A program made the position numbers and the translations under genes. A DNA stretch of 32,000 nucleotides from Nitrosopumilus sp. Its GTDB lineage: Archaea > Thermoproteota > Nitrososphaeria > Nitrososphaerales > Nitrosopumilaceae. Each line of letters starts with the position of its first letter. Within the stretch, counting starts at the first letter, position 1. The stretch spans positions 506,251-538,250 of the forward strand of contig OZ240211.1 of assembly GCA_965197525.1 (NCBI GenBank), given 5' to 3'. Positions 6,650 to 32,000 of the stretch are shown here, piece after piece. The notes below the pieces were generated by a model that saw nothing but the letters and a program-made list of their open reading frames with translations, did no database searches and had not been told where the DNA came from.

Positions 6650-6908
6650 GGTTCTGTAACATCTTCGAGACCCTTAGTGATGTTATCGCTGGCCTAAATA
6701 TACCATTCAAACTATCCTCTAGGTTTAGGGATAGTCGAGATGACATAGATGAAGCGAAGTCTGGCATTTTTGAGCCAGCGATGTTGGAATCTTGCAGATC
6801 AGTAATCTAGATAGTCGATATGTCAAAGTCGAGTGATAGAGAGAAAACAATTTGTTAATAATACAACAAAATTTCTTTGTTGATAGGTGTCTATAACCAG
6901 ACAGAACC
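6650..6908 (+). mobile_element. Miniature (MITE-like) TnpB-element derivative with no protein coding, retaining the left terminus and the right-end RNA block
   Basis: The left terminus is GGTTCTGTAACATCTTCGAGA (6650-6670) and the right terminus is ...CTATAACCAGACAGAACC (ends 6908). The interior 6716-6908 aligns to the 3' end and right end of the tnpB copies at 23255-23410 and 30529-30731. Confidence 0.6.
6716..6908 (+). ncRNA. Putative omega-RNA (right-end RNA) scaffold, orphan copy
   Basis: It starts at the conserved CCTCTAGGTTTAGGGATAGT block and ends at CAGAACC. It contains the hairpins CTGGC-N8-GCCAG and TTTGTTAATAATACAACAAA. There is no intact ORF on the + strand. Confidence 0.4.
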
Positions 6909-10233: not shown

Positions 10234-10488
10234 TTGAACAGCACGAACACGCAATATCCAGGATGCGGAAAGAAACTCCAAGAGGATATTATGCAACAAC
10301 ATCATAAATTATCGTGTACTAATTGTGGATTGTTCATTGATATGAACGCATCTCACAAGCTGTCCCCTAGGTTTAGGGATAGTAGAGATGACATACATGA
10401 AGCGCAGTCTGGCACTTTTGAGTCAGCAATGTCGGAACCCAGCACACCGTCGGTAATCCGAATAGTCGATATGTCAAAGTCAGGTTAT
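10234..10488 (+). pseudogene. tnpB: TnpB C-terminal remnant (zinc ribbon and RuvC-III decayed)
   Basis: NSTNTQYPGCGKKLQED...SCTNCGLFIDMNASHKLSPRFRDSR aligns to PRNTSTQCPQCGKRLQED...CNNCGLFMDRDIIAAMNISRKLPPRFRGSR of the intact copy. The first Cys is changed to Tyr and the RDIIAA segment is deleted. Confidence 0.75.
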
Positions 10489-10547
10489 ATGGAGAGGAAC
10501 TTTGTTAATACACAACAAATTTCAGGTCTCGATAACCCAACAGAACC
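10364..10547 (+). ncRNA. Putative omega-RNA scaffold, orphan copy
   Basis: There is high nucleotide identity to 23255-23410, starting at CCCCTAGGTTTAGGGATAGTAGAG. It has the hairpins CTGGC-N8-GTCAG and TTTGTTAATACACAACAAA and ends at CAGAACC. Confidence 0.45.
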
Positions 10548-17486: not shown

Positions 17487-19004
17487 CTATATCAGAAACA
17501 AAAATACCGAGGCAGGTATAATTACGTAATCAGTTTTAGATTCCAAATCGAGTTTTGACAAAACAATCCCGGTTTTTTTCACATCATTACGAAAGCTTGT
17601 TAATCCAGATAATTCCTTGGCGTTAATTTTTTGTCTAAACTTTACTTCGATTGGAATTTCAATATCTCCAACTGAAAGCACGAAATCTACTTCCTTGTTG
17701 TTTTTACTCTTCCAGTAAAAGACATGGTTATGGTATTGAAAAATATGCTTTTTTGTACTCAGAGCAAAAGCTAATCTGATTAGGTGGTCGGCTACTATGC
17801 CTTCCACCATCTTTCCCTTATTTGCCTCGTCTTGTACGTACTGTAAGCTAAGATCAAAACTGTTCATTTGATCTGCCCATCCATTAAAAATATGGAGTAA
17901 AAATGGATCTCGGAAATAAAACTTCCGATCATTTTGGATTCTAGGCATCTTGTTTTTGGTACCGTATAGATACACGATTGATAAGACAAATAGATCATCT
18001 AATGTGTATGCATAGTCTGCCACAGTGTTTGGACTACCTATTGCAGATTCACGGGAGAGATTGGTCCAAGAGGTATGGCTAGTCAAACCATTAATTATTG
18101 TTCTTCCAAATTGCCCAAGTAATGTTTCATTTTTAGATTGGCGACTCCATTCGCCGGTAATGCCATTAAGATATTCATAGTAGATATTTTCGTCTAATAT
18201 GCCGGTCGTGATCTTTTTATTAATTATGTAAGGAGTTCCTCCAGTGAGCATATATTCATTTAACAAATCATTTAATTCATTTTGGTACGCATTAATTTTG
18301 TCAATATTTGAATGTATACTGAGATTAGTAAGATCCAGAAGAATGTTTTTCTTGTTTTGAGTACAATGTAATTTTAGATCTGAATGGAGTGATTTTAGTT
18401 CACTATTTTGCATGCAGACAAACTCAGAAAATTTCATAGGTAGCAAAATCTTATCATAGGTATCTGTTATTGTTCCCCTTCTGTTGGGTAGTCTTTCAGA
18501 TGCATTCTTCAATCCAATTGCTTGTGAACCCGTAGCTACTAGTGTAACATTGGGGATTTTATGCTGATCCACTAACCATTTGATACTTTTCTGCCAATCA
18601 ATTACTGAAGTTGCTTCATCTAAAAAGATATACCGTCTATCGCTTTCTCGCAATTTTGGTGTTAATTTAAAATAAATTTCTATAACATCTACAATATCTT
18701 GTTTTGTATCATCAATGTCCAAAGAGTAATAGCATATCTGCCACGGCGATATTCCTTTGTCTAAAAAATCTTTGATCTGTAACATCAGTAATGTGGTTTT
18801 GCCAATTTGTCTAGGTCCACGTAGCGTATAGACTACGGTGTTAGTTGTACTGAAATCCCACTTGATCTTATCTTTCAGTTCTGGAACATATTTCATCATA
18901 GATTTATGCCACTCGTAGATTTTTTGGTTATCGTTAATCTTGCTTGCATTCTTCCACCAAGGATTCATATCCCTTATTCGGTATTCGCTGACCATACAGG
19001 ACAT
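17487..19004 (-). CDS. AAA+ ATPase of the COG1373 type (AAA domain plus DUF4143-like C-terminus)
   Basis: It has Walker A GPRQIGKTT, Walker B YIFLDEAT and NPWW near the N-terminus. I trimmed the start from the ORF-track GTG (19040, inside the tandem repeat) to the ATG at 19004. The ATG at 18995 is equally possible. Confidence 0.8.
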   Translation of the reverse strand: MSCMVSEYRIRDMNPWWKNASKINDNQKIYEWHKSMMKYVPELKDKIKWDFSTTNTVVYTLRGPRQIGKTTLLMLQIKDFLDKGISPWQICYYSLDIDDTKQDIVDVIEIYFKLTPKLRESDRRYIFLDEATSVIDWQKSIKWLVDQHKIPNVTLVATGSQAIGLKNASERLPNRRGTITDTYDKILLPMKFSEFVCMQNSELKSLHSDLKLHCTQNKKNILLDLTNLSIHSNIDKINAYQNELNDLLNEYMLTGGTPYIINKKITTGILDENIYYEYLNGITGEWSRQSKNETLLGQFGRTIINGLTSHTSWTNLSRESAIGSPNTVADYAYTLDDLFVLSIVYLYGTKNKMPRIQNDRKFYFRDPFLLHIFNGWADQMNSFDLSLQYVQDEANKGKMVEGIVADHLIRLAFALSTKKHIFQYHNHVFYWKSKNNKEVDFVLSVGDIEIPIEVKFRQKINAKELSGLTSFRNDVKKTGIVLSKLDLESKTDYVIIPASVFLFLI

Positions 19005-19180
19005 ACTGAACGGTTCTTTATATATTACAGTCGGATCCACTGAACGGTTCTTTATATATTACAGTCGGATCCACTGAACGGTTCTTTATATATTACAGTC
19101 GGATCCACTGAACGGTTCTTTATATATTACAGTCGGATCCACTGAACGGTTCTTTATATATTACAGTCGGATCCACTGAA
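19005..19180. repeat. Perfect 34-bp tandem repeat, 5 copies plus a 6-nt partial
   Basis: The unit ACTGAACGGTTCTTTATATATTACAGTCGGATCC begins at 19005, 19039, 19073, 19107 and 19141, with a partial at 19175. Each unit contains TTTATATA, which matches the archaeal TATA box. Confidence 0.95.
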
Positions 19181-19324
19181 TTATTTGCCAACTTTATGAT
19201 TTCCAAGGTTTGTGATCAGAGATCATGATATCTACCGTCTCGCTAGCCTGCACAAGTATTTGGCTATTCTGAATTTAATTACTTTGAGGGTAAATTGTAA
19301 TTAGTAAAGAGATTACCAACTAGA

Positions 19325-22057: not shown

Positions 22058-22194
22058 ACGTATTCTTCAGAGAACCCCGATAATATCTGCTACGCTAGCA
22101 AGTAATACGGTTTTATTTGAAAAGGTTTTGTGAAGTTATCGGGAGTTATATGTCATCCCTAAAATGTATAAACCTCTGAACCGTAAGATATTCG

Positions 22195-23388
22195 TTGAGA
22201 GCGATAAAGTCAATATCACAGAAATATGCGCAAAACTCTGATCTAATGGATATGATGGCTATATTCACAAAGATGGTCAATCATTGCATCAAGATAGGGT
22301 TGAAAGAAGACACTCACAATATGAAGAGGTTGTCCATGTTATGTTATCATGAATTACGTAACTATGGCATTTTATCAACATACAAGATATGTGCAATATC
22401 AAGAGCTGCAGGCATATTATCAAACAGAAAACAATCAATCAAACGAGGTGTCAGAATAAGAGACCCAATAGTCAAAAATCCCTTTATGACAAACTGTTAC
22501 GGCATAAAACACAACGGTGCACTACTAACAATCCCATACAAGAAACATAACCCAATCAGCATTTTACTCAACGATCACACCCAAAAAATCCTATCTGATC
22601 CCGCCTTGACGGTGCGCTCGTTTTCATTGACTGCTCTCAACATCAGTCTTTGTGTTTCAAAAACAGTACAAGAGATAGAGTGCACCAAGAAGGTGGGAAT
22701 AGACAGAAACCTAAGAAATGTGACGTGTGGGGACGAGGAAGAGGTGACAGTCTACAAGACAAACAAACTGTTATCCATAAAGGAGAACACAATACACGCC
22801 AGGGCAGGCTTCCACAGAAATGATCGCAGGAAGAAAAATCAGTTCTACAAGGAAAAACAGAGAAGACTGACTAACAGAGCAAAGCAGTACATCCACAGAA
22901 TCTCAAAGGATATAGTAGACAACGCAGTCAAAAACAAGACTGCAATCGTCATGGAAAACCTGAAAGGAATAAGAAAATTGTACCGAAAAGGAAACACTCA
23001 AGGTAACAAGTACAGACGTAGATTGAACGGGTGGCAATTCTACGAGTTACAACGCCAAATAGAATACAAAGCCCAATGGGTCGGACTACCTCCAGTCGAG
23101 ACAGTAGACCCAAGAAACACGAGCACGCAGTGTCCACAATGCGGAAAGAGACTCCAAGAGGACATGCAACAACATCGTAAATTGTCGTGTAATAATTGCG
23201 GTTTGTTTATGGACAGGGACATCATCGCTGCCATGAACATATCACGCAAACTGCCCCCTAGGTTTAGGGGTAGTAGAGGTGACATAGATGAAGCACAGTC
23301 CGGCACTTTTGAGCAGGCGATGACGGAACCCAGCACACCATTGGTAATCCGAATAGTCGATATGTCAAAGTCGAGTTATAGGGGTTAA
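22195..23388 (+). CDS. tnpB: TnpB (IS605 OrfB-family) RNA-guided endonuclease, apparently intact
   Basis: 397 aa with RuvC-I VGIDRN (Asp ~170), RuvC-II VMENLKG (Glu ~254), zinc ribbon CPQCG...CNNCG and RuvC-III MDRDIIAAMNI. It has a TTG start; the paralog uses ATG at the equivalent codon. Confidence 0.92.
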   Translation: MRAIKSISQKYAQNSDLMDMMAIFTKMVNHCIKIGLKEDTHNMKRLSMLCYHELRNYGILSTYKICAISRAAGILSNRKQSIKRGVRIRDPIVKNPFMTNCYGIKHNGALLTIPYKKHNPISILLNDHTQKILSDPALTVRSFSLTALNISLCVSKTVQEIECTKKVGIDRNLRNVTCGDEEEVTVYKTNKLLSIKENTIHARAGFHRNDRRKKNQFYKEKQRRLTNRAKQYIHRISKDIVDNAVKNKTAIVMENLKGIRKLYRKGNTQGNKYRRRLNGWQFYELQRQIEYKAQWVGLPPVETVDPRNTSTQCPQCGKRLQEDMQQHRKLSCNNCGLFMDRDIIAAMNISRKLPPRFRGSRGDIDEAQSGTFEQAMTEPSTPLVIRIVDMSKSSYRG

Positions 23389-23410
23389 CTCCCGATAACT
23401 TCACAGAACC
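23255..23410 (+). ncRNA. Putative omega-RNA (reRNA) scaffold overlapping the tnpB 3' end and the right end
   Basis: This is the nucleotide block most conserved among all four copies, including the non-coding ones. A terminal hairpin GTTATAGGGGTTAACTCCCGATAAC lies just before TTCACAGAACC. The expected guide is the flank 23411-23430. Confidence 0.55.
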
Positions 23411-23438
23411 AAAAGAATAGTAAAAAAGATGAAGATTA

Positions 23439-24554
23439 TTGGGAATTCCTGAAAAGATCAAAGCCATACAAGATGAAATGGCAAAGACGCAGATCAACAA
23501 GGCAACAGAGCACCACATAGGATTACTCAAAGCAAAGATTGCCAAGCTCAAAAGAGAACAAGAAGCAGATGCTGTCAAAAAATCAGGCATGAAGCAAGAT
23601 GGATTTGATGTAAGGCGTAGCGGAGATGCGACAGTGGTATTCATAGGACTGCCAAGTGTCGGAAAATCTACACTGTTAAACAAGATGACTGGTGCTAACT
23701 CAACCATAGGGGCTTTCCAATTTACAACACTGACTGTTGTTCCGGGGATGATGGAGTACAGGGGCGCAAAGATCCAAGTATTGGATCTGCCAGGGATCAT
23801 AAAAGGTGCATCAACAGGCAAAGGATTAGGAAAGAGAATATTATCAGTTGCAAGATCAGCTGACCTAGTACTGTTGATGTTAGATGTATTTCAACCATAT
23901 CACGAGGACGTGTTAATAAATGAATTAGGCAATATTGGAATAAGATTAAACCGCCTACCACCGAACATCACAATTGAAAAAGCATCAATGGGAGGAATTG
24001 CAGTTGCGCAACAAGTAAAATTAACAAAGATCACAGAGAAACATCTCAAAGACATATTACATCTGTACGGATTGGTTAGCGCACGCGTGGTAATAAGAGA
24101 AGATATAACATCTGAACAATTGGCAGATCATATTGCAGGAAATATTAGTTATTCAAAAGCTATCACGATACTAAACAAGATTGATCTAGTGGATAAAGTA
24201 TTTCTCAATAATTTAAAAACAAAGATAAAATCAGACGTAGTAGAGGTGTCTGCAAATGCAGATATCAACATTGAACTACTCAAAGAAAAGATATATCAGA
24301 AATTAAAATTTATTAGAATATATATGAGACCCAAGGGCGGAGAGACTGATTTTAAAGAACCGTTAATTGCAAGAGAAGGTGACACAGTTGAAGAAATTTG
24401 TAACAAACTTCATCGCAGGTTAAGAAGAGAGTTCAGATACGGTTTAGTTTGGGGCAAGAGTGTAAAGTTTGGAGGACAGCGAGTGGGATTAAGTCACATT
24501 TTAGTCGATGAGGATGTGCTCACCATAATAAAAAAGCGTGGAAGTACTGTATAA
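23439..24554 (+). CDS. DRG-family (Obg-like) GTP-binding protein with C-terminal TGS domain
   Basis: 371 aa with G1 GLPSVGKST, G3 DLPGII and G4 NKID. It has the N-terminal MGIPEKIKAIQDEMAKTQ typical of DRG proteins and a TTG start. Confidence 0.92.
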   Translation: MGIPEKIKAIQDEMAKTQINKATEHHIGLLKAKIAKLKREQEADAVKKSGMKQDGFDVRRSGDATVVFIGLPSVGKSTLLNKMTGANSTIGAFQFTTLTVVPGMMEYRGAKIQVLDLPGIIKGASTGKGLGKRILSVARSADLVLLMLDVFQPYHEDVLINELGNIGIRLNRLPPNITIEKASMGGIAVAQQVKLTKITEKHLKDILHLYGLVSARVVIREDITSEQLADHIAGNISYSKAITILNKIDLVDKVFLNNLKTKIKSDVVEVSANADINIELLKEKIYQKLKFIRIYMRPKGGETDFKEPLIAREGDTVEEICNKLHRRLRREFRYGLVWGKSVKFGGQRVGLSHILVDEDVLTIIKKRGSTV

Positions 24555-24759
24555 CTAGAAAAAATCAAGCGTATGCTGTGCTGCGTGTGCCTGTATGACA
24601 CCATAACGAGAGTCTTATTCATAATTGAAAGCTCCATGTGTAGAAAAATTGTAGAAAAAATACACGATTAAAGGAGAAATTTACTTTATAATTTATAATC
24701 AAATTGTGTAAACTTTTTTAGTGTAGTAATTCAAAAATGGGAAAAAGCTCAACATTGCA

Positions 24760-25320
24760 ATGGCTATAAGAAAAACTTCTACAGCTAAACGTAGAACAGC
24801 TAAGAAAACTACTGCAAGAAAGACATCTACAAAGAAAGCAGCTCCTAGACGAAGTGCAGCAAAGAAAGCAGCTCCTAGACGAAGTGCAGCAAAGAAAGCA
24901 GCTCCTAGACGAAGTGCAGCAAAGAAAGCAGCTCCTAGACGAAGTGCAGCAAAGAAAGCAGCTCCTAGACGAAGTGCAGCAAAGAAAGCAGCTCCTAGAC
25001 GAAGTGCAGCAAAGAAAGCAGCTCCTAGACGAAGTGCAGCAAAGAAAGCAGCTCCTAGACGAAGTGCAGCAAAGAAAGCAGCTCCTAGACGAAGTGCAGC
25101 AAAGAAAGCAGCTCCTAGACGAAGTGCAGCAAAGAAAGCAGCTCCTAGACGAAGTGCAGCAAAGAAAGCAGCTCCTAGACGAAGTGCAGCAAAGAAAGCA
25201 GCTCCTAGACGAAGTGCAGCAAAGAAAGCAGCTCCTAGACGAAGTGCAGCAAAGAAAGCAGCTCCTAGACGAAGTGCAGCAAAGAAAGCAGCTCCTAGAC
25301 GAAGTGCAAAGAGACGATAA
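24760..25320 (+). CDS. Highly basic Ala/Lys/Arg/Pro repeat protein (histone H1-tail-like), 16 x AAPRRSAAKK
   Basis: It starts with ATG, and the non-repeat N-terminus MAIRKTSTAKRRTAKKTTARKTSTKK has the same composition as the repeats. The stop comes directly after a degenerate last repeat. Other frames of the repeat are open only because the unit has no stop codon. Confidence 0.6.
   Translation: MAIRKTSTAKRRTAKKTTARKTSTKKAAPRRSAAKKAAPRRSAAKKAAPRRSAAKKAAPRRSAAKKAAPRRSAAKKAAPRRSAAKKAAPRRSAAKKAAPRRSAAKKAAPRRSAAKKAAPRRSAAKKAAPRRSAAKKAAPRRSAAKKAAPRRSAAKKAAPRRSAAKKAAPRRSAAKKAAPRRSAKRR
24838..25308. repeat. Perfect 30-bp tandem repeat, 15 identical units plus a 21-nt partial
   Basis: The unit GCAGCTCCTAGACGAAGTGCAGCAAAGAAA recurs with no mismatch from 24838 to 25287, and the next unit diverges after 21 nt. 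Confidence 0.98.
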
Positions 25321-25549
25321 ATTCGTTAACACAATTAACAATCATCGGACAAACGACGGATTGTTTTCTATTTTTCTAAATGACTCAGTATTAACTATAA
25401 AGTATTAAACTCGATTTTAGTTTTTTAAGATTTGTAATCATAAAATTTTAAAAAATTATTAATTATCAAACATATGACAGAATCAATAATTATAGAGATA
25501 TTGCATATTGCATATTTTTGATGAATAGTTTATTGTTTGAAGAAGCACG

Positions 25550-27229
25550 TCAATAAAGATAACTCATTAATTTAATCTCTTCTTCAGTGCTAATGATGTT
25601 TTTAGCTGTTAGAACTTCTAACAGATCCTTAAAAAGTGCTTTTTGCTCACTAGACATTCCACCGGTAGGACCCTTATCACCTGGTAATCCCGGAGGACCT
25701 CGTGGGCCTGGAGGACCTAATGGGCCTTGCTCACCTGGAGGACCTTGCTCACCTAGAGGGCCTAATGGGCCTTTTGAACCTCGCTCTCCTTGAGGACCCT
25801 GAATTCCTTGTGGGCCTTGTGGGCCTTTCTCACCTGCAGGACCGGTAGGACCTCGCTCTCCTTGGGAACCTTGTGGGCCTTGTGGGCCTTTGGCGCCTAC
25901 AGGACCTAGTGGGCCGGTAGAGCCTCGCTCTCCAATCTGTCCGACACGTCCCTTCTCACCTCGCTCACCCTGTATTCCTGGAACGCCTGTCATTCCTTTC
26001 TCACCTGGAGGACCTTGTGGGCCTTGTGGACCAGTCTCACCTTGTGGACCATCAACGCCCTTGTTTCCTTTCTCACCGGGGGGACCAGTTGGACCTGCTA
26101 GTCCTTTTGGACCTTTGTCGCCTTGTGGACCCGTAACACCTGTTAATCCTTTTGAGCCTGTGGCGCCCTGCGGGCCTTGTAGACCCTTCTCACCTGGAGA
26201 ACCTTTGTCACCAGTTGGGCCTTTCTCACCCGTAGCACCTTGTGGGCCAAGTAAACCTTGTGGACCTTTGTCGCCTTTGATTCCAACAGGACCTGTTAAT
26301 CCTTTTGAACCCACAGGACCGGGGGAACCTTGCGGACCTTTGTCGCCCGGAGAACCGAGTTGGCCTGTAGGGCCTTTTGAACCCTTATCCCCCATATGAC
26401 CATGAGGACCTTTGTCACCTATAGGGCCTTTGTCACCAGTTGGACCCTTGGTGCCCACAGGACCTGCAGGACCTTGCAGTCCTTTGTCACCCTGAATTCC
26501 AGGAAAGCCAGTTGGGCCCTTTTCACCAGCAGGTCCAGGTGGACCGGTAAGTCCTTTGTCACCAGGCATGCCCTGTGGGCCTTTGTCACCCTTATCGCCA
26601 ATAACCCCGCGTAAACCAAGAGGGCCTTTGTCGCCAAGAGGACCTTTGTCACCTGGAGGACCACGCTCACCTTGCACACCTGAAGGTCCAGATGGACCTT
26701 TGTCACCTTTAGAACCCATACGTCCAGAGGATCCAGTAGAAACGGCAATATCAGATGAGCCTTCAGGCGTGGATGGTTTTTGTCGTCCAGATGAGGGTTT
26801 GGTAATAGTAGAAGAGGAGGAGGAGGAAGAGGAAGATGCAGGAGGAACAATAGACATGCCAGATTTAACATCATGTGTAGCAGAAGCATCTGCATCCTTG
26901 CTGGATTTATCAGTTTTTAGAGCCTTCTTTTTCAAAGAGACCTCAAATACAGTATGTGCAGAAGAGAACGAATCATATGCGACAATCCAAATTTTATCTA
27001 GTGCGTCAATTGACGGAGGCAGTGGATTTAGTGCAGACCCCAGCGTTTCAAAAAACACGCCATCGCGTACGCGTAGATGAAAGTGGTCTTTCCAGAGATA
27101 TTTGAACTGTTTTGACATTATGGAATCATCAGTAGGCTTGGATGTTGTGATAGCAATTTCAGTCTCATAGACTCCAGGCTGGGTTATTGGCGCAGGTCCG
27201 CTTACCTCTAACTTTGATGCAGATGACAC
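25550..27229 (-). CDS. Collagen-like triple-helix repeat protein
   Basis: 559 aa. Residues 169-522 (nt 25664-26725) are about 118 uninterrupted Gly-X-Y triplets (GDKGPQG, GERGPPG and similar). The 168-aa N-terminal non-collagen domain ends in a Ser9 linker, and there is a 37-aa C-terminal helical tail. It has a GTG start and no in-frame upstream ATG. Confidence 0.85.
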
Positions 27230-30528: not shown

Positions 30529-30731
30529 GGTTCTGTCTAATCATAGTGAGATAAAATCTAAACTCCGAAAAAAAGTTTTGTTGTAATATTAACAAAGTGT
30601 CTTTTTCCCATCAGTTGACTTTGACATATCGACTATTTGGATTACCGGTGTACAGGGTTCCAACATCGCTAACTCAAAAACATTAGACTTCGCTTCACTT
30701 ATGCCAACTCTACTATCCCTAAACCTAGGGG
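30529..30731 (-). ncRNA. Putative omega-RNA scaffold of the frameshifted element
   Basis: The reverse complement starts CCCCTAGGTTTAGGGATAGTAGAG and ends GATTAGACAGAACC. It has the compensated hairpin CTAAT-N8-GTTAG and the TTTGTTAATATTACAACAAA hairpin. Confidence 0.45.
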
Positions 30732-31792
30732 ACAGTTTGTGAGGTATATTTATAGCAGCAATAACGTCTCTGTCCATAAACAACCCACAATTATTGCACG
30801 ACTTTTTACGATGGTGTTGCAAGTCCTCTTGGAGTTTCTTTCCGCATCTTGGACATTGCGAGCTCGTGTTTTTTGGGTCTACAAATTTTACTGGAAGCCC
30901 TACCCATTGGGCTTTGTATTGTATTTGTCTTTGAAATTCAAAGAATTGCCATCCGTTTAATCTACGTCTGTACTTGTTACCTTGACCATTGCCTTTCTTG
31001 TATAATTTTCTTATTCCTTTTAGATCTTCTAGAATAATCATGGTTTTGTTTTTGACTGCTCGTTCTACAATATCTTTTGAGATTCTATGTATGTATTGTT
31101 TGGTTCTTTGAGACATTCTTCTCTGCTTTATCTTCCAGAACTGATCTTTCTTTCTACGGTCATTTCTATGAAATCCAGCTCTAGCGTGTATTGTATTTTC
31201 TTTAATTGATAGTAATTTATTTGTCTTGTATACTATAACTTTTTTCTCATTCCCACAAGTGACATTTCTAAGATTTCTGTCTAATTCCTACCGGTACATT
31301 AGTACATTCTATTTCTTCAACTTTTTTTGAAACACAAAAACTGATACTTTTTTCATTCATAATAAATGATCTTATATTTAAATCAGGATTAGATAGTATT
31401 TTTTGAGTGTGATCATTTAATAATATGTTTATGGGGTTTCTATTTTTGTATGGTATTGTCATTAAACTACCATTATGTTTGATACCATAACAATTTGTAA
31501 TAAATAACTTTTTTACAACTAGGTCTCTTACTGTAACACCACGCTTTATTGACTGTTTTCTGTTAGATAGTATGCCAACAGCACGTGATATTGCATTTAT
31601 TTTATATGAACCTAAAACATCATAGTCTCTAAATTCATGATAACAAAGTGGAGACAACTGTTTCAAACTATGTACGTCTTCTCTTAACCCTATTCTAATG
31701 GAACGATTTACCATTTTTATGAATATCTCCATCAACTCTTTTAGATCAGAATTTGGTGTATGTTTCTGTGTTATTGATTTTAATGCCTTCAT
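30589..31792 (-). pseudogene. tnpB: tnpB disrupted by a single-nucleotide insertion just before the RuvC-I Asp codon
   Basis: The N-terminal ORF (31268-31792) and the C-terminal frame (open from 31281 to 30589) both align to the intact copy. GGAATTAGACAG here corresponds to GGAATAGACAG in the intact copy, so there is one extra base at plus-strand 31283/31284. Downstream E, Zn-ribbon and DRD motifs are intact. Confidence 0.85.
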
Positions 31793-32000
31793 ACTACTAG
31801 AACATGTTTTATTTTTTTAATAAAGGTACTTTTTTTGAAATTATTTTTATTCTTTGCCACTTGATAATCCAATAAAACCATTATTTGTTATTGTAAATCT
31901 AGATAAAAATTTATCTCCCTATAAATAGACAGAACACTGTATAGGTAAGTATTAATTGTTTATGCTACAAGAATACAATATGCAAAAGGCGACCATAGCA

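Follow-up and report, generated by a model that had tools for sequence, protein, structure and literature searches.

Covariation of a hairpin within the 3' end of an archaeal tnpB gene, probably a stem-loop of its omega-RNA guide scaffold

The tnpB element and its host genome

The window, that is the whole stretch of 32,000 nucleotides that was analysed, comes from a complete 2.21-Mb archaeal genome, assigned to Nitrosopumilus by the names that its closest TnpB homologues and loci bear, and carries a TnpB-only mobile element with the features collected in Table 1. The ORF of this element is identifiable as TnpB from its TNB/zinc-ribbon domain, its RuvC D-E-D residues and its Cas12f/TnpB homology, and its sequence matches in the PDB include Cas12f and ISDra2 TnpB (8bf8/8h1j). 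In a comparison of 24 homologues, D170, D342 and the zinc-finger cysteines C313/C316/C332/C335 show no variation, and conservation of E254 is at least 90%.

The inverted-repeat ends of the element begin GG(T/C)TCTG. Of the window's copy and about 30 others in the genome, most are flanked by perfect 8-bp target-site duplications, and a T-T-G/A motif lies directly 5' of the duplicated target at most datable insertions; around the window's own copy (22124-23410) no clean target duplication was found. Neither a Y1 transposase (PF01797) nor a serine recombinase (PF00239) was found in the genome, which is 99% complete, and eight matches to PF13610 (IS240/IS6-type DDE) lie elsewhere in it. An IS200/IS605 or IS607 element was considered and ruled out by the lack of a cognate TnpA, the 25-bp inverted repeats and the 8-bp duplications. 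Across the genome, the final 300 nt of the element are present at 51 sites, compared with 35 for its first 300 nt and 37 for its middle, an asymmetry which implies about 15 remnants that are truncated at their 5' side and retain the guide-RNA scaffold and the right end, and part of which is possibly detection bias, the 3' part being more conserved. Apart from these, the window has repeat tracts at 24695-25398, 25550-27229 and 18971-19214, which comprise a tandem array of 16 units of 30 bp, a long repeat that encodes collagen-like Gly-X-Y on the minus strand and a second tandem array, of six 34-bp units.

Table 1. Positions of the element, the tnpB gene, the scaffold helices and the hairpin copies in the window
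Feature	Position	Strand	Details
TnpB-only mobile element, 1,287 bp	22124-23410	+	copies alike up to ...ACAGAACC, then diverge
Left terminal inverted repeat, 25 bp	22124-22148	+	GGTTTTGTGAAG...; 24/25 against the reverse complement of 23386-23410
tnpB ORF, 397 aa	22195-23388	+	Pfam Cas12f1-like_TNB PF07282, E 7e-21
Helix P1	23250-23256 with 23268-23274	+	conserved loop CUAGGUUUAG; outer pairs covary
Predicted pseudoknot, 5' strand	23261-23265	+	GGUUU in P1 loop; pairs with 23406-23410
Helix P2, 5' strand	23280-23291	+	UGACAUA and UGA; pairs with 23357-23367
Hairpin P3	23294-23322	+	stem 23300-23304 with 23313-23317; loop 23305-23312 (ACUUUUGA)
P3, extra base pairs	23294/23322, 23295/23321, 23298/23318	+	
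Helix P4	23324-23327 with 23348-23351, 23330-23331 with 23343-23344	+	CGGA..CC with GG..UCCG
Helix P2, 3' strand	23357-23367	+	UCG and UAUGUCA
P2 pairing	23280-23286 with 23361-23367, 23289-23291 with 23357-23359		long-range; six pairs changed on both sides across genomes
Terminal stem P5	23373-23401	+	inner part of the right inverted repeat serves as 3' strand
Right terminal inverted repeat, 25 bp	23386-23410	+	inner edge is the tnpB stop TAA, 23386-23388
Predicted pseudoknot, 3' strand	23406-23410	+	GAACC, last five bases of the element
Putative guide segment	23411-23430	+	flank past the element end; placed from the pseudoknot position and the ISDra2 architecture (PMC10097598)
Same hairpin in another copy	6761-6778	+	CTGGC/GCCAG; inside 5'-truncated remnant, about 6686-6908
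Same hairpin in another copy	10409-10426	+	CTGGC/GTCAG, one G-U; 5'-truncated remnant, about 10337-10547
Same hairpin in another copy	30669-30686	-	CTAAT/GTTAG, closing U-G; broken full-length copy 30529-31937 (-)

Covariation of the hairpin and the coding tail

The first-pass annotation had described a 5-bp stem with an 8-nt loop recurring with different base pairs in four copies within the window, and reading the window sequence directly returns the sites and pairs that it had given, as well as the peptides encoded there in the tnpB frame (SGIFEPA, SGTFESA, SGTFEQA and SNVFELA). The copy at 23300-23317 (CCGGC/GCAGG, with a G.A mismatch in mid-stem) is the only one of the four that lies within an intact tnpB (ORF 22195-23388); the tnpB copy at 30589-31792 (-) is broken. 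Four copies by themselves would be weak evidence. The genome, however, holds about 50 copies of the element's 3' part, which fall into several subfamilies at 78-100% identity, and an alignment of 45 of them (A1; 40 distinct) was used for counting pairs. Over the 40 distinct copies, 93.9% of the stem cells are paired, and each of the five pairs shows changes on both sides (41 cells in total). When columns were shuffled, none of 500 shuffles attained the observed pairing, number of both-side-changed cells, pair types or covariation score, and in 7 of 500 all five pairs came out with both-side changes; with the 3' arm displaced by 1-3 columns, pairing was only 17-50%. RNAalifold run on A1 predicts the hairpin independently, and in a structure-agnostic MAFFT alignment of own copies with 11 sequences from other genomes (A4) pairing stands at 96.1%, with 16 further pair types. 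The stems seen include CCGGC/GCCGG, CUGGC/GCCAG, CCGGU/ACCGG, CUGAC/GUCAG, CUAAC/GUUAG and UUGAU/GUCAA, besides CGUUC/GAAUG, CGGAC/GUCCG, GUUCC/GGAAC, CUGAU/AUCAG, AUUCU/GGAAU and GUGAA/UUCAC.

The kinship of the copies within one genome makes such cell counts overstate the number of independent events. To mitigate this, we computed a tree of 50 copies for which about 630 flanking columns were used and those of the hairpin excluded. On it the five pairs underwent at least 3+5+2+6+3 = 19 switches of Watson-Crick pair type, and the stem haplotype changed at least 20 times. The compensatory changes that had been proposed from four copies are therefore borne out by the pairing in A1 and A4, the failed controls and the switches on the tree, and the covariation signal held when the alignment was enlarged to the 40 distinct own copies and then to foreign sequences. 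Folded as a single sequence, 23246-23410 gains no stability over its shuffles (z = -0.76), so the case rests on comparison and not on thermodynamics. Most of the 5'-truncated remnants retain a paired stem, which is inseparable from recent inheritance.

The copies at 165311 (+) and 2170991 (-) are identical across the about 630 flanking columns and carry three differences within the 18-nt hairpin (CCGGC..GCAGG versus CTGGC..GCCAG), and the youngest clade of copies has six stem haplotypes, for the most part transitions from CCGG to CTGG or to CCAG. Gene conversion between copies could be the cause, or a mutational hot spot such as a methylated CCGG site.

Nucleotide diversity by codon position was compared over 34 intact ORFs. 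The ratio of position 3 to positions 1+2 was 3.0-3.4 for residues 1-280 and 2.5 for residues 281-349, and dropped to 1.04 for residues 350-397, the last 48 codons. In long stretches of this tail none of the three codon positions varies, and the sites that do vary are those that pair. Radical replacements occur among the residues that the stem encodes (SG, SD, SN, FD and SF on one side; EQ, EP, ES, EL and EN on the other) with the pairing kept, and AlphaFold2, run on an alignment of 24 sequences, models residues 353-381 without secondary structure and with pLDDT below 50; sequence homology to the solved TnpB and Cas12f structures in the PDB stops near residue 351. The loss of periodicity in the tail and the radical replacements under kept pairing uphold the proposal of the first-pass annotation that selection here acts on the RNA rather than on the peptide. 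On this comparative evidence, the pairing has been kept by repeated compensatory substitutions and the region evolves as RNA, not as peptide. The loop UUUUGA of P3 is invariant and conserved even at a synonymous site, which suggests a specific contact, and the F-E residues that it encodes are conserved among homologues.

Nearer the stop codon, positions 23343-23372 (GGTAATCCGAATAGTCGATATGTCAAAGTC), which encode V-I-R-I-V-D-M-S-K-S, are essentially invariant at all codon positions in all copies, and AlphaFold places a short strand of moderate confidence at residues 384-389. Both the RNA and the peptide may be under constraint in this segment.

The surrounding helices, the pseudoknot and their distribution

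RNAalifold and pair counting support helices P1, P2 and P4 around the hairpin, and over 35 scaffold pairs 98.4% of cells are paired in the copies of this genome. P4 shows a switch of its outer pair from C-G to U-A along with changes of its inner pairs, and the closing stem P5 folds in each subfamily with differing length and sequence. G-U accounts for about 12% of the paired cells and is nearly fixed at three positions; as these pairs would become A.C mismatches in the antisense strand, the structure belongs to the sense strand. The covarying helices span 23250-23410, over the 3' end of tnpB and on to the right end of the element. The inner three pairs that RNAalifold added to P1 (CUA with UAG) are invariant in the genome and often unpaired in relatives; they were read as part of the loop, which makes the loop of P1 large. 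A tertiary pairing of the P3 loop (UUUG) with the single-stranded CAAAG after P2 found no support, since relatives vary this segment (CCAAG, CUCAG, CGAAG) without matching changes in the loop.

A predicted 5-bp covarying pseudoknot, of the sort found in the guide RNAs of ISDra2 and Cas12, joins the P1 loop to the last bases of the element. Nearly every locus reads ...ACAGAACC just before its flank diverges and has GGUU[U/C] in the P1 loop. In four loci (L111, L123, L140 and L141) a GGCU loop goes with an AGAGCC end (U-A to C-G), the element end of L141, read by eye, being ...ATAGAGCC; in L124 an AGUUC loop goes with an AGAACU end (G-C to A-U). Single changes are compatible with wobble pairing, as GGUUC loops turn U.G into C-G and AGAACU ends give G.U, and a pair is broken in a few loci with GAUUU loops. 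The compensatory events behind the pseudoknot are few and amount to five loci and two pairs. Sequence conservation among the copies ends exactly at ...AGAACC. As the pseudoknot uses the last bases of the element, the scaffold would run to the element end and the guide would be the flank from 23411, so that right-flank DNA is the probable source of the guide. A site without the insertion, reading T-T-G/A motif, 8-bp target and right flank in that order, would match such a guide, which fits the TnpB homing model.

The first-pass annotation had expected an omega-RNA scaffold embedded in the ORF, and the hairpin is indeed nested in covarying helices and a pseudoknot over the tnpB 3' end. No Rfam 15 family matches the window at the gathering threshold, and for 23150-23450 relaxing the cutoff to E 10 brought up no hit either; membership among omega RNAs therefore rests on architecture and not on a curated model.

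Since searching 40 relatives at the DNA level turned up the element in no more than two further genomes, sampling was widened by a protein-guided locus search and a covariance model of the scaffold core (R1). The model was run on 84 loci, 80 of which are tnpB loci taken from a protein alignment with one genome per species and four of which came from the DNA search of relatives. It matches the 3' end of 73 tnpB homologues, among whose hosts are Nitrosopumilus, Nitrosotenuis, Nitrosotalea, Nitrososphaera and MAGs of Bathyarchaeota and Methanomethylicota. The foreign loci show many both-side changes in P1, P2 and P4, with an overall pairing of 91.3% in an alignment that is fitted to the model and favours the structure. 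The P3 stem is carried by 20 of the 67 distinct foreign sequences, and its five pairs are paired in 20/20 (again in the model-fitted alignment). The carriers all belong to the Nitrosopumilus-type clade, with a TnpB identity to the window copy of about 57% or more. In relatives lacking P3, GAAGC runs straight into GAUGA and about 24 nt (8 codons) are missing; such relatives in Nitrosotenuis, Nitrosotalea and Nitrososphaera yet keep the other helices. Judged by this distribution, P3 is a clade-specific peripheral branch, either gained in this clade or lost elsewhere, and not part of a universal omega-RNA core, and its absence from many relatives means that it is not essential to the basic mechanism of the family. 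Within the genus the RNA model is present in 7 of 101 sampled genomes, and large expansions are seen in the window's genome (about 50 copies) and in one other (at least 16).

Interpretation and comparison with known systems

We consider it very probable that the hairpin at 23300-23317 is stem-loop P3 of the TnpB omega-RNA (reRNA) guide scaffold, encoded on the sense strand by the last about 48 codons and the right end of the element. The order of the scaffold would be P1 with GGUUU in its loop, P2 enclosing P3 and P4, then P5, GAACC and the guide from the flank. We infer that this RNA is transcribed, processed and bound by TnpB and that P3 contributes to it: the tnpB transcript would be processed into an RNA reaching from P1 to the flank-derived guide, TnpB would bind a core of P1, the pseudoknot, P2 and P5, and P3 would project from the P2 junction beside P4. 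There it may stabilise the P2/P4 junction or make a clade-specific contact through its UUUUGA loop; a part in catalysis or guide presentation is not expected. A bolder version, which we hold to be rather unlikely, is that P3 is no passive stabiliser but a recently acquired and functionally meaningful expansion segment of the omega RNA, a clade-specific contact which matches co-resident TnpB subfamilies to their own RNAs or which recruits a second protomer or host factor. The guide-RNA pseudoknot of such a system would draw on the tip of an IS6-type inverted repeat, and the same 5 nt would serve a DDE transposase and the nuclease RNA.

Other explanations were weighed against the scaffold reading. 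The hairpin could be an mRNA-level element outside the mature guide RNA, where it would pause ribosomes, mark processing or stabilise the transcript. This would agree with the 5' trimming of the ISDra2 primary transcript, in which the region is dispensable (PMC10097598), and with relatives that keep the core helices and miss the hairpin. We find it very unlikely, however, for the hairpin sits between the covarying P2 strands (23280-23286 and 23361-23367), and P1, which lies further 5', holds the pseudoknot strand whose changes go with those in the element's final bases. With P1 and P2 in the mature RNA, the hairpin is necessarily included.

DNA hairpins near the element ends are used in the IS200/IS605 family, and by analogy with these subterminal hairpins the structure could act at the DNA level, as a single-strand hairpin or cruciform for a transposase or for replication. 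The genome offered neither a Y1 transposase nor a serine recombinase, the element is bounded by inverted repeats and 8-bp target duplications, 93 nt separate the hairpin from the element end, and the frequent G-U intermediates, together with the near-fixed G-U pairs of the neighbouring helices, are strand-specific and RNA-like, all of which makes a DNA structure extremely improbable. We give equally little credence to the pairing being a by-product of selection on the peptide or a matter of chance in a small repeat family. The conserved F-E residues and the shared ancestry of the copies could be cited for this, but codon periodicity is lost in the tail, the replacements at stem positions are radical, AlphaFold models the tail with low confidence, and neither the at least 19 Watson-Crick switches on the tree nor the failure of the slid and shuffled controls is accounted for.

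As part of a guide scaffold, the hairpin offers a clean example of a coding region under selection for RNA structure, in which codon periodicity is gone and five pairs are repeatedly restored. The comparison also yields a usable guide-RNA model (P1-P5 and the pseudoknot) for a thaumarchaeal TnpB clade absent from Rfam, and for compact TnpB editors the natural presence and absence of P3 marks a segment of about 24 nt that is probably trimmable. The known workings of TnpB systems are left unchanged by the finding. In the literature collection searched, no paper names both TnpB and Nitrosopumilus.

The closest comparison is with ISDra2 of Deinococcus radiodurans, for which the omega RNA is known from cryo-EM (PMC10097598). 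This omega RNA and the one predicted here share a sense-strand origin over the tnpB 3' end and the right end of the element, a long-range helix around an internal stem and a terminal stem before the guide. In ISDra2, and by prediction here, the nucleotides next to the guide form a pseudoknot with a loop towards the scaffold's 5' end, which in ISDra2 pairs nucleotides -5 to -3 with -103 to -105 (PMC10097598). The RNA in both overlaps a poorly conserved and disordered C-terminal tail of the protein, and in ISDra2 TnpB this domain is dispensable for cleavage (PMC10097598). Parts of peripheral stems are likewise dispensable, stem 3b being deletable in ISDra2 (PMC10097598) and P3 being missing in relatives here. 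Unlike ISDra2, the present RNA has an archaeal host and is predicted from sequence comparison, shares no detectable RNA sequence similarity with the ISDra2 RNA, encloses two branches (P3 and P4) and not one within its long-range helix, and takes the 3' strand of its pseudoknot from the tip of a terminal inverted repeat and not from an IS200/IS605 right end.

The sense-overlapping transcripts (sotRNAs) of archaeal IS1341-type tnpB genes (Gomes-Filho 2015, PMC4615843) are also non-coding RNAs at the 3' end of archaeal TnpB-only elements that share sequence with the coding region; those are supported by transcript data in haloarchaea, whereas the present RNA belongs to Nitrososphaerota and is described by comparative structure. 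Altae-Tran 2023 (PMC10691335) reported DDE-associated TnpBs with inverted repeats, naming the IS630-linked DDE-6, and solo copies with matching ends. The element described here resembles the former in its inverted terminal repeats and in a TnpB 3' end within 250 bp of the transposon end, and the latter in being presumably mobilised in trans. It differs in that no omega-RNA structure is given in that study for the present clade, and its about 50 copies exceed the '>30 copies' class that TnpB clusters lack according to the same study (PMC10691335). An omega-RNA helix in the tnpB 3' end is an expected feature, which is here documented for an archaeal clade without a described RNA model, the added details being that the helix appears clade-specific and that the predicted scaffold pseudoknot is built from the inverted-repeat tip.
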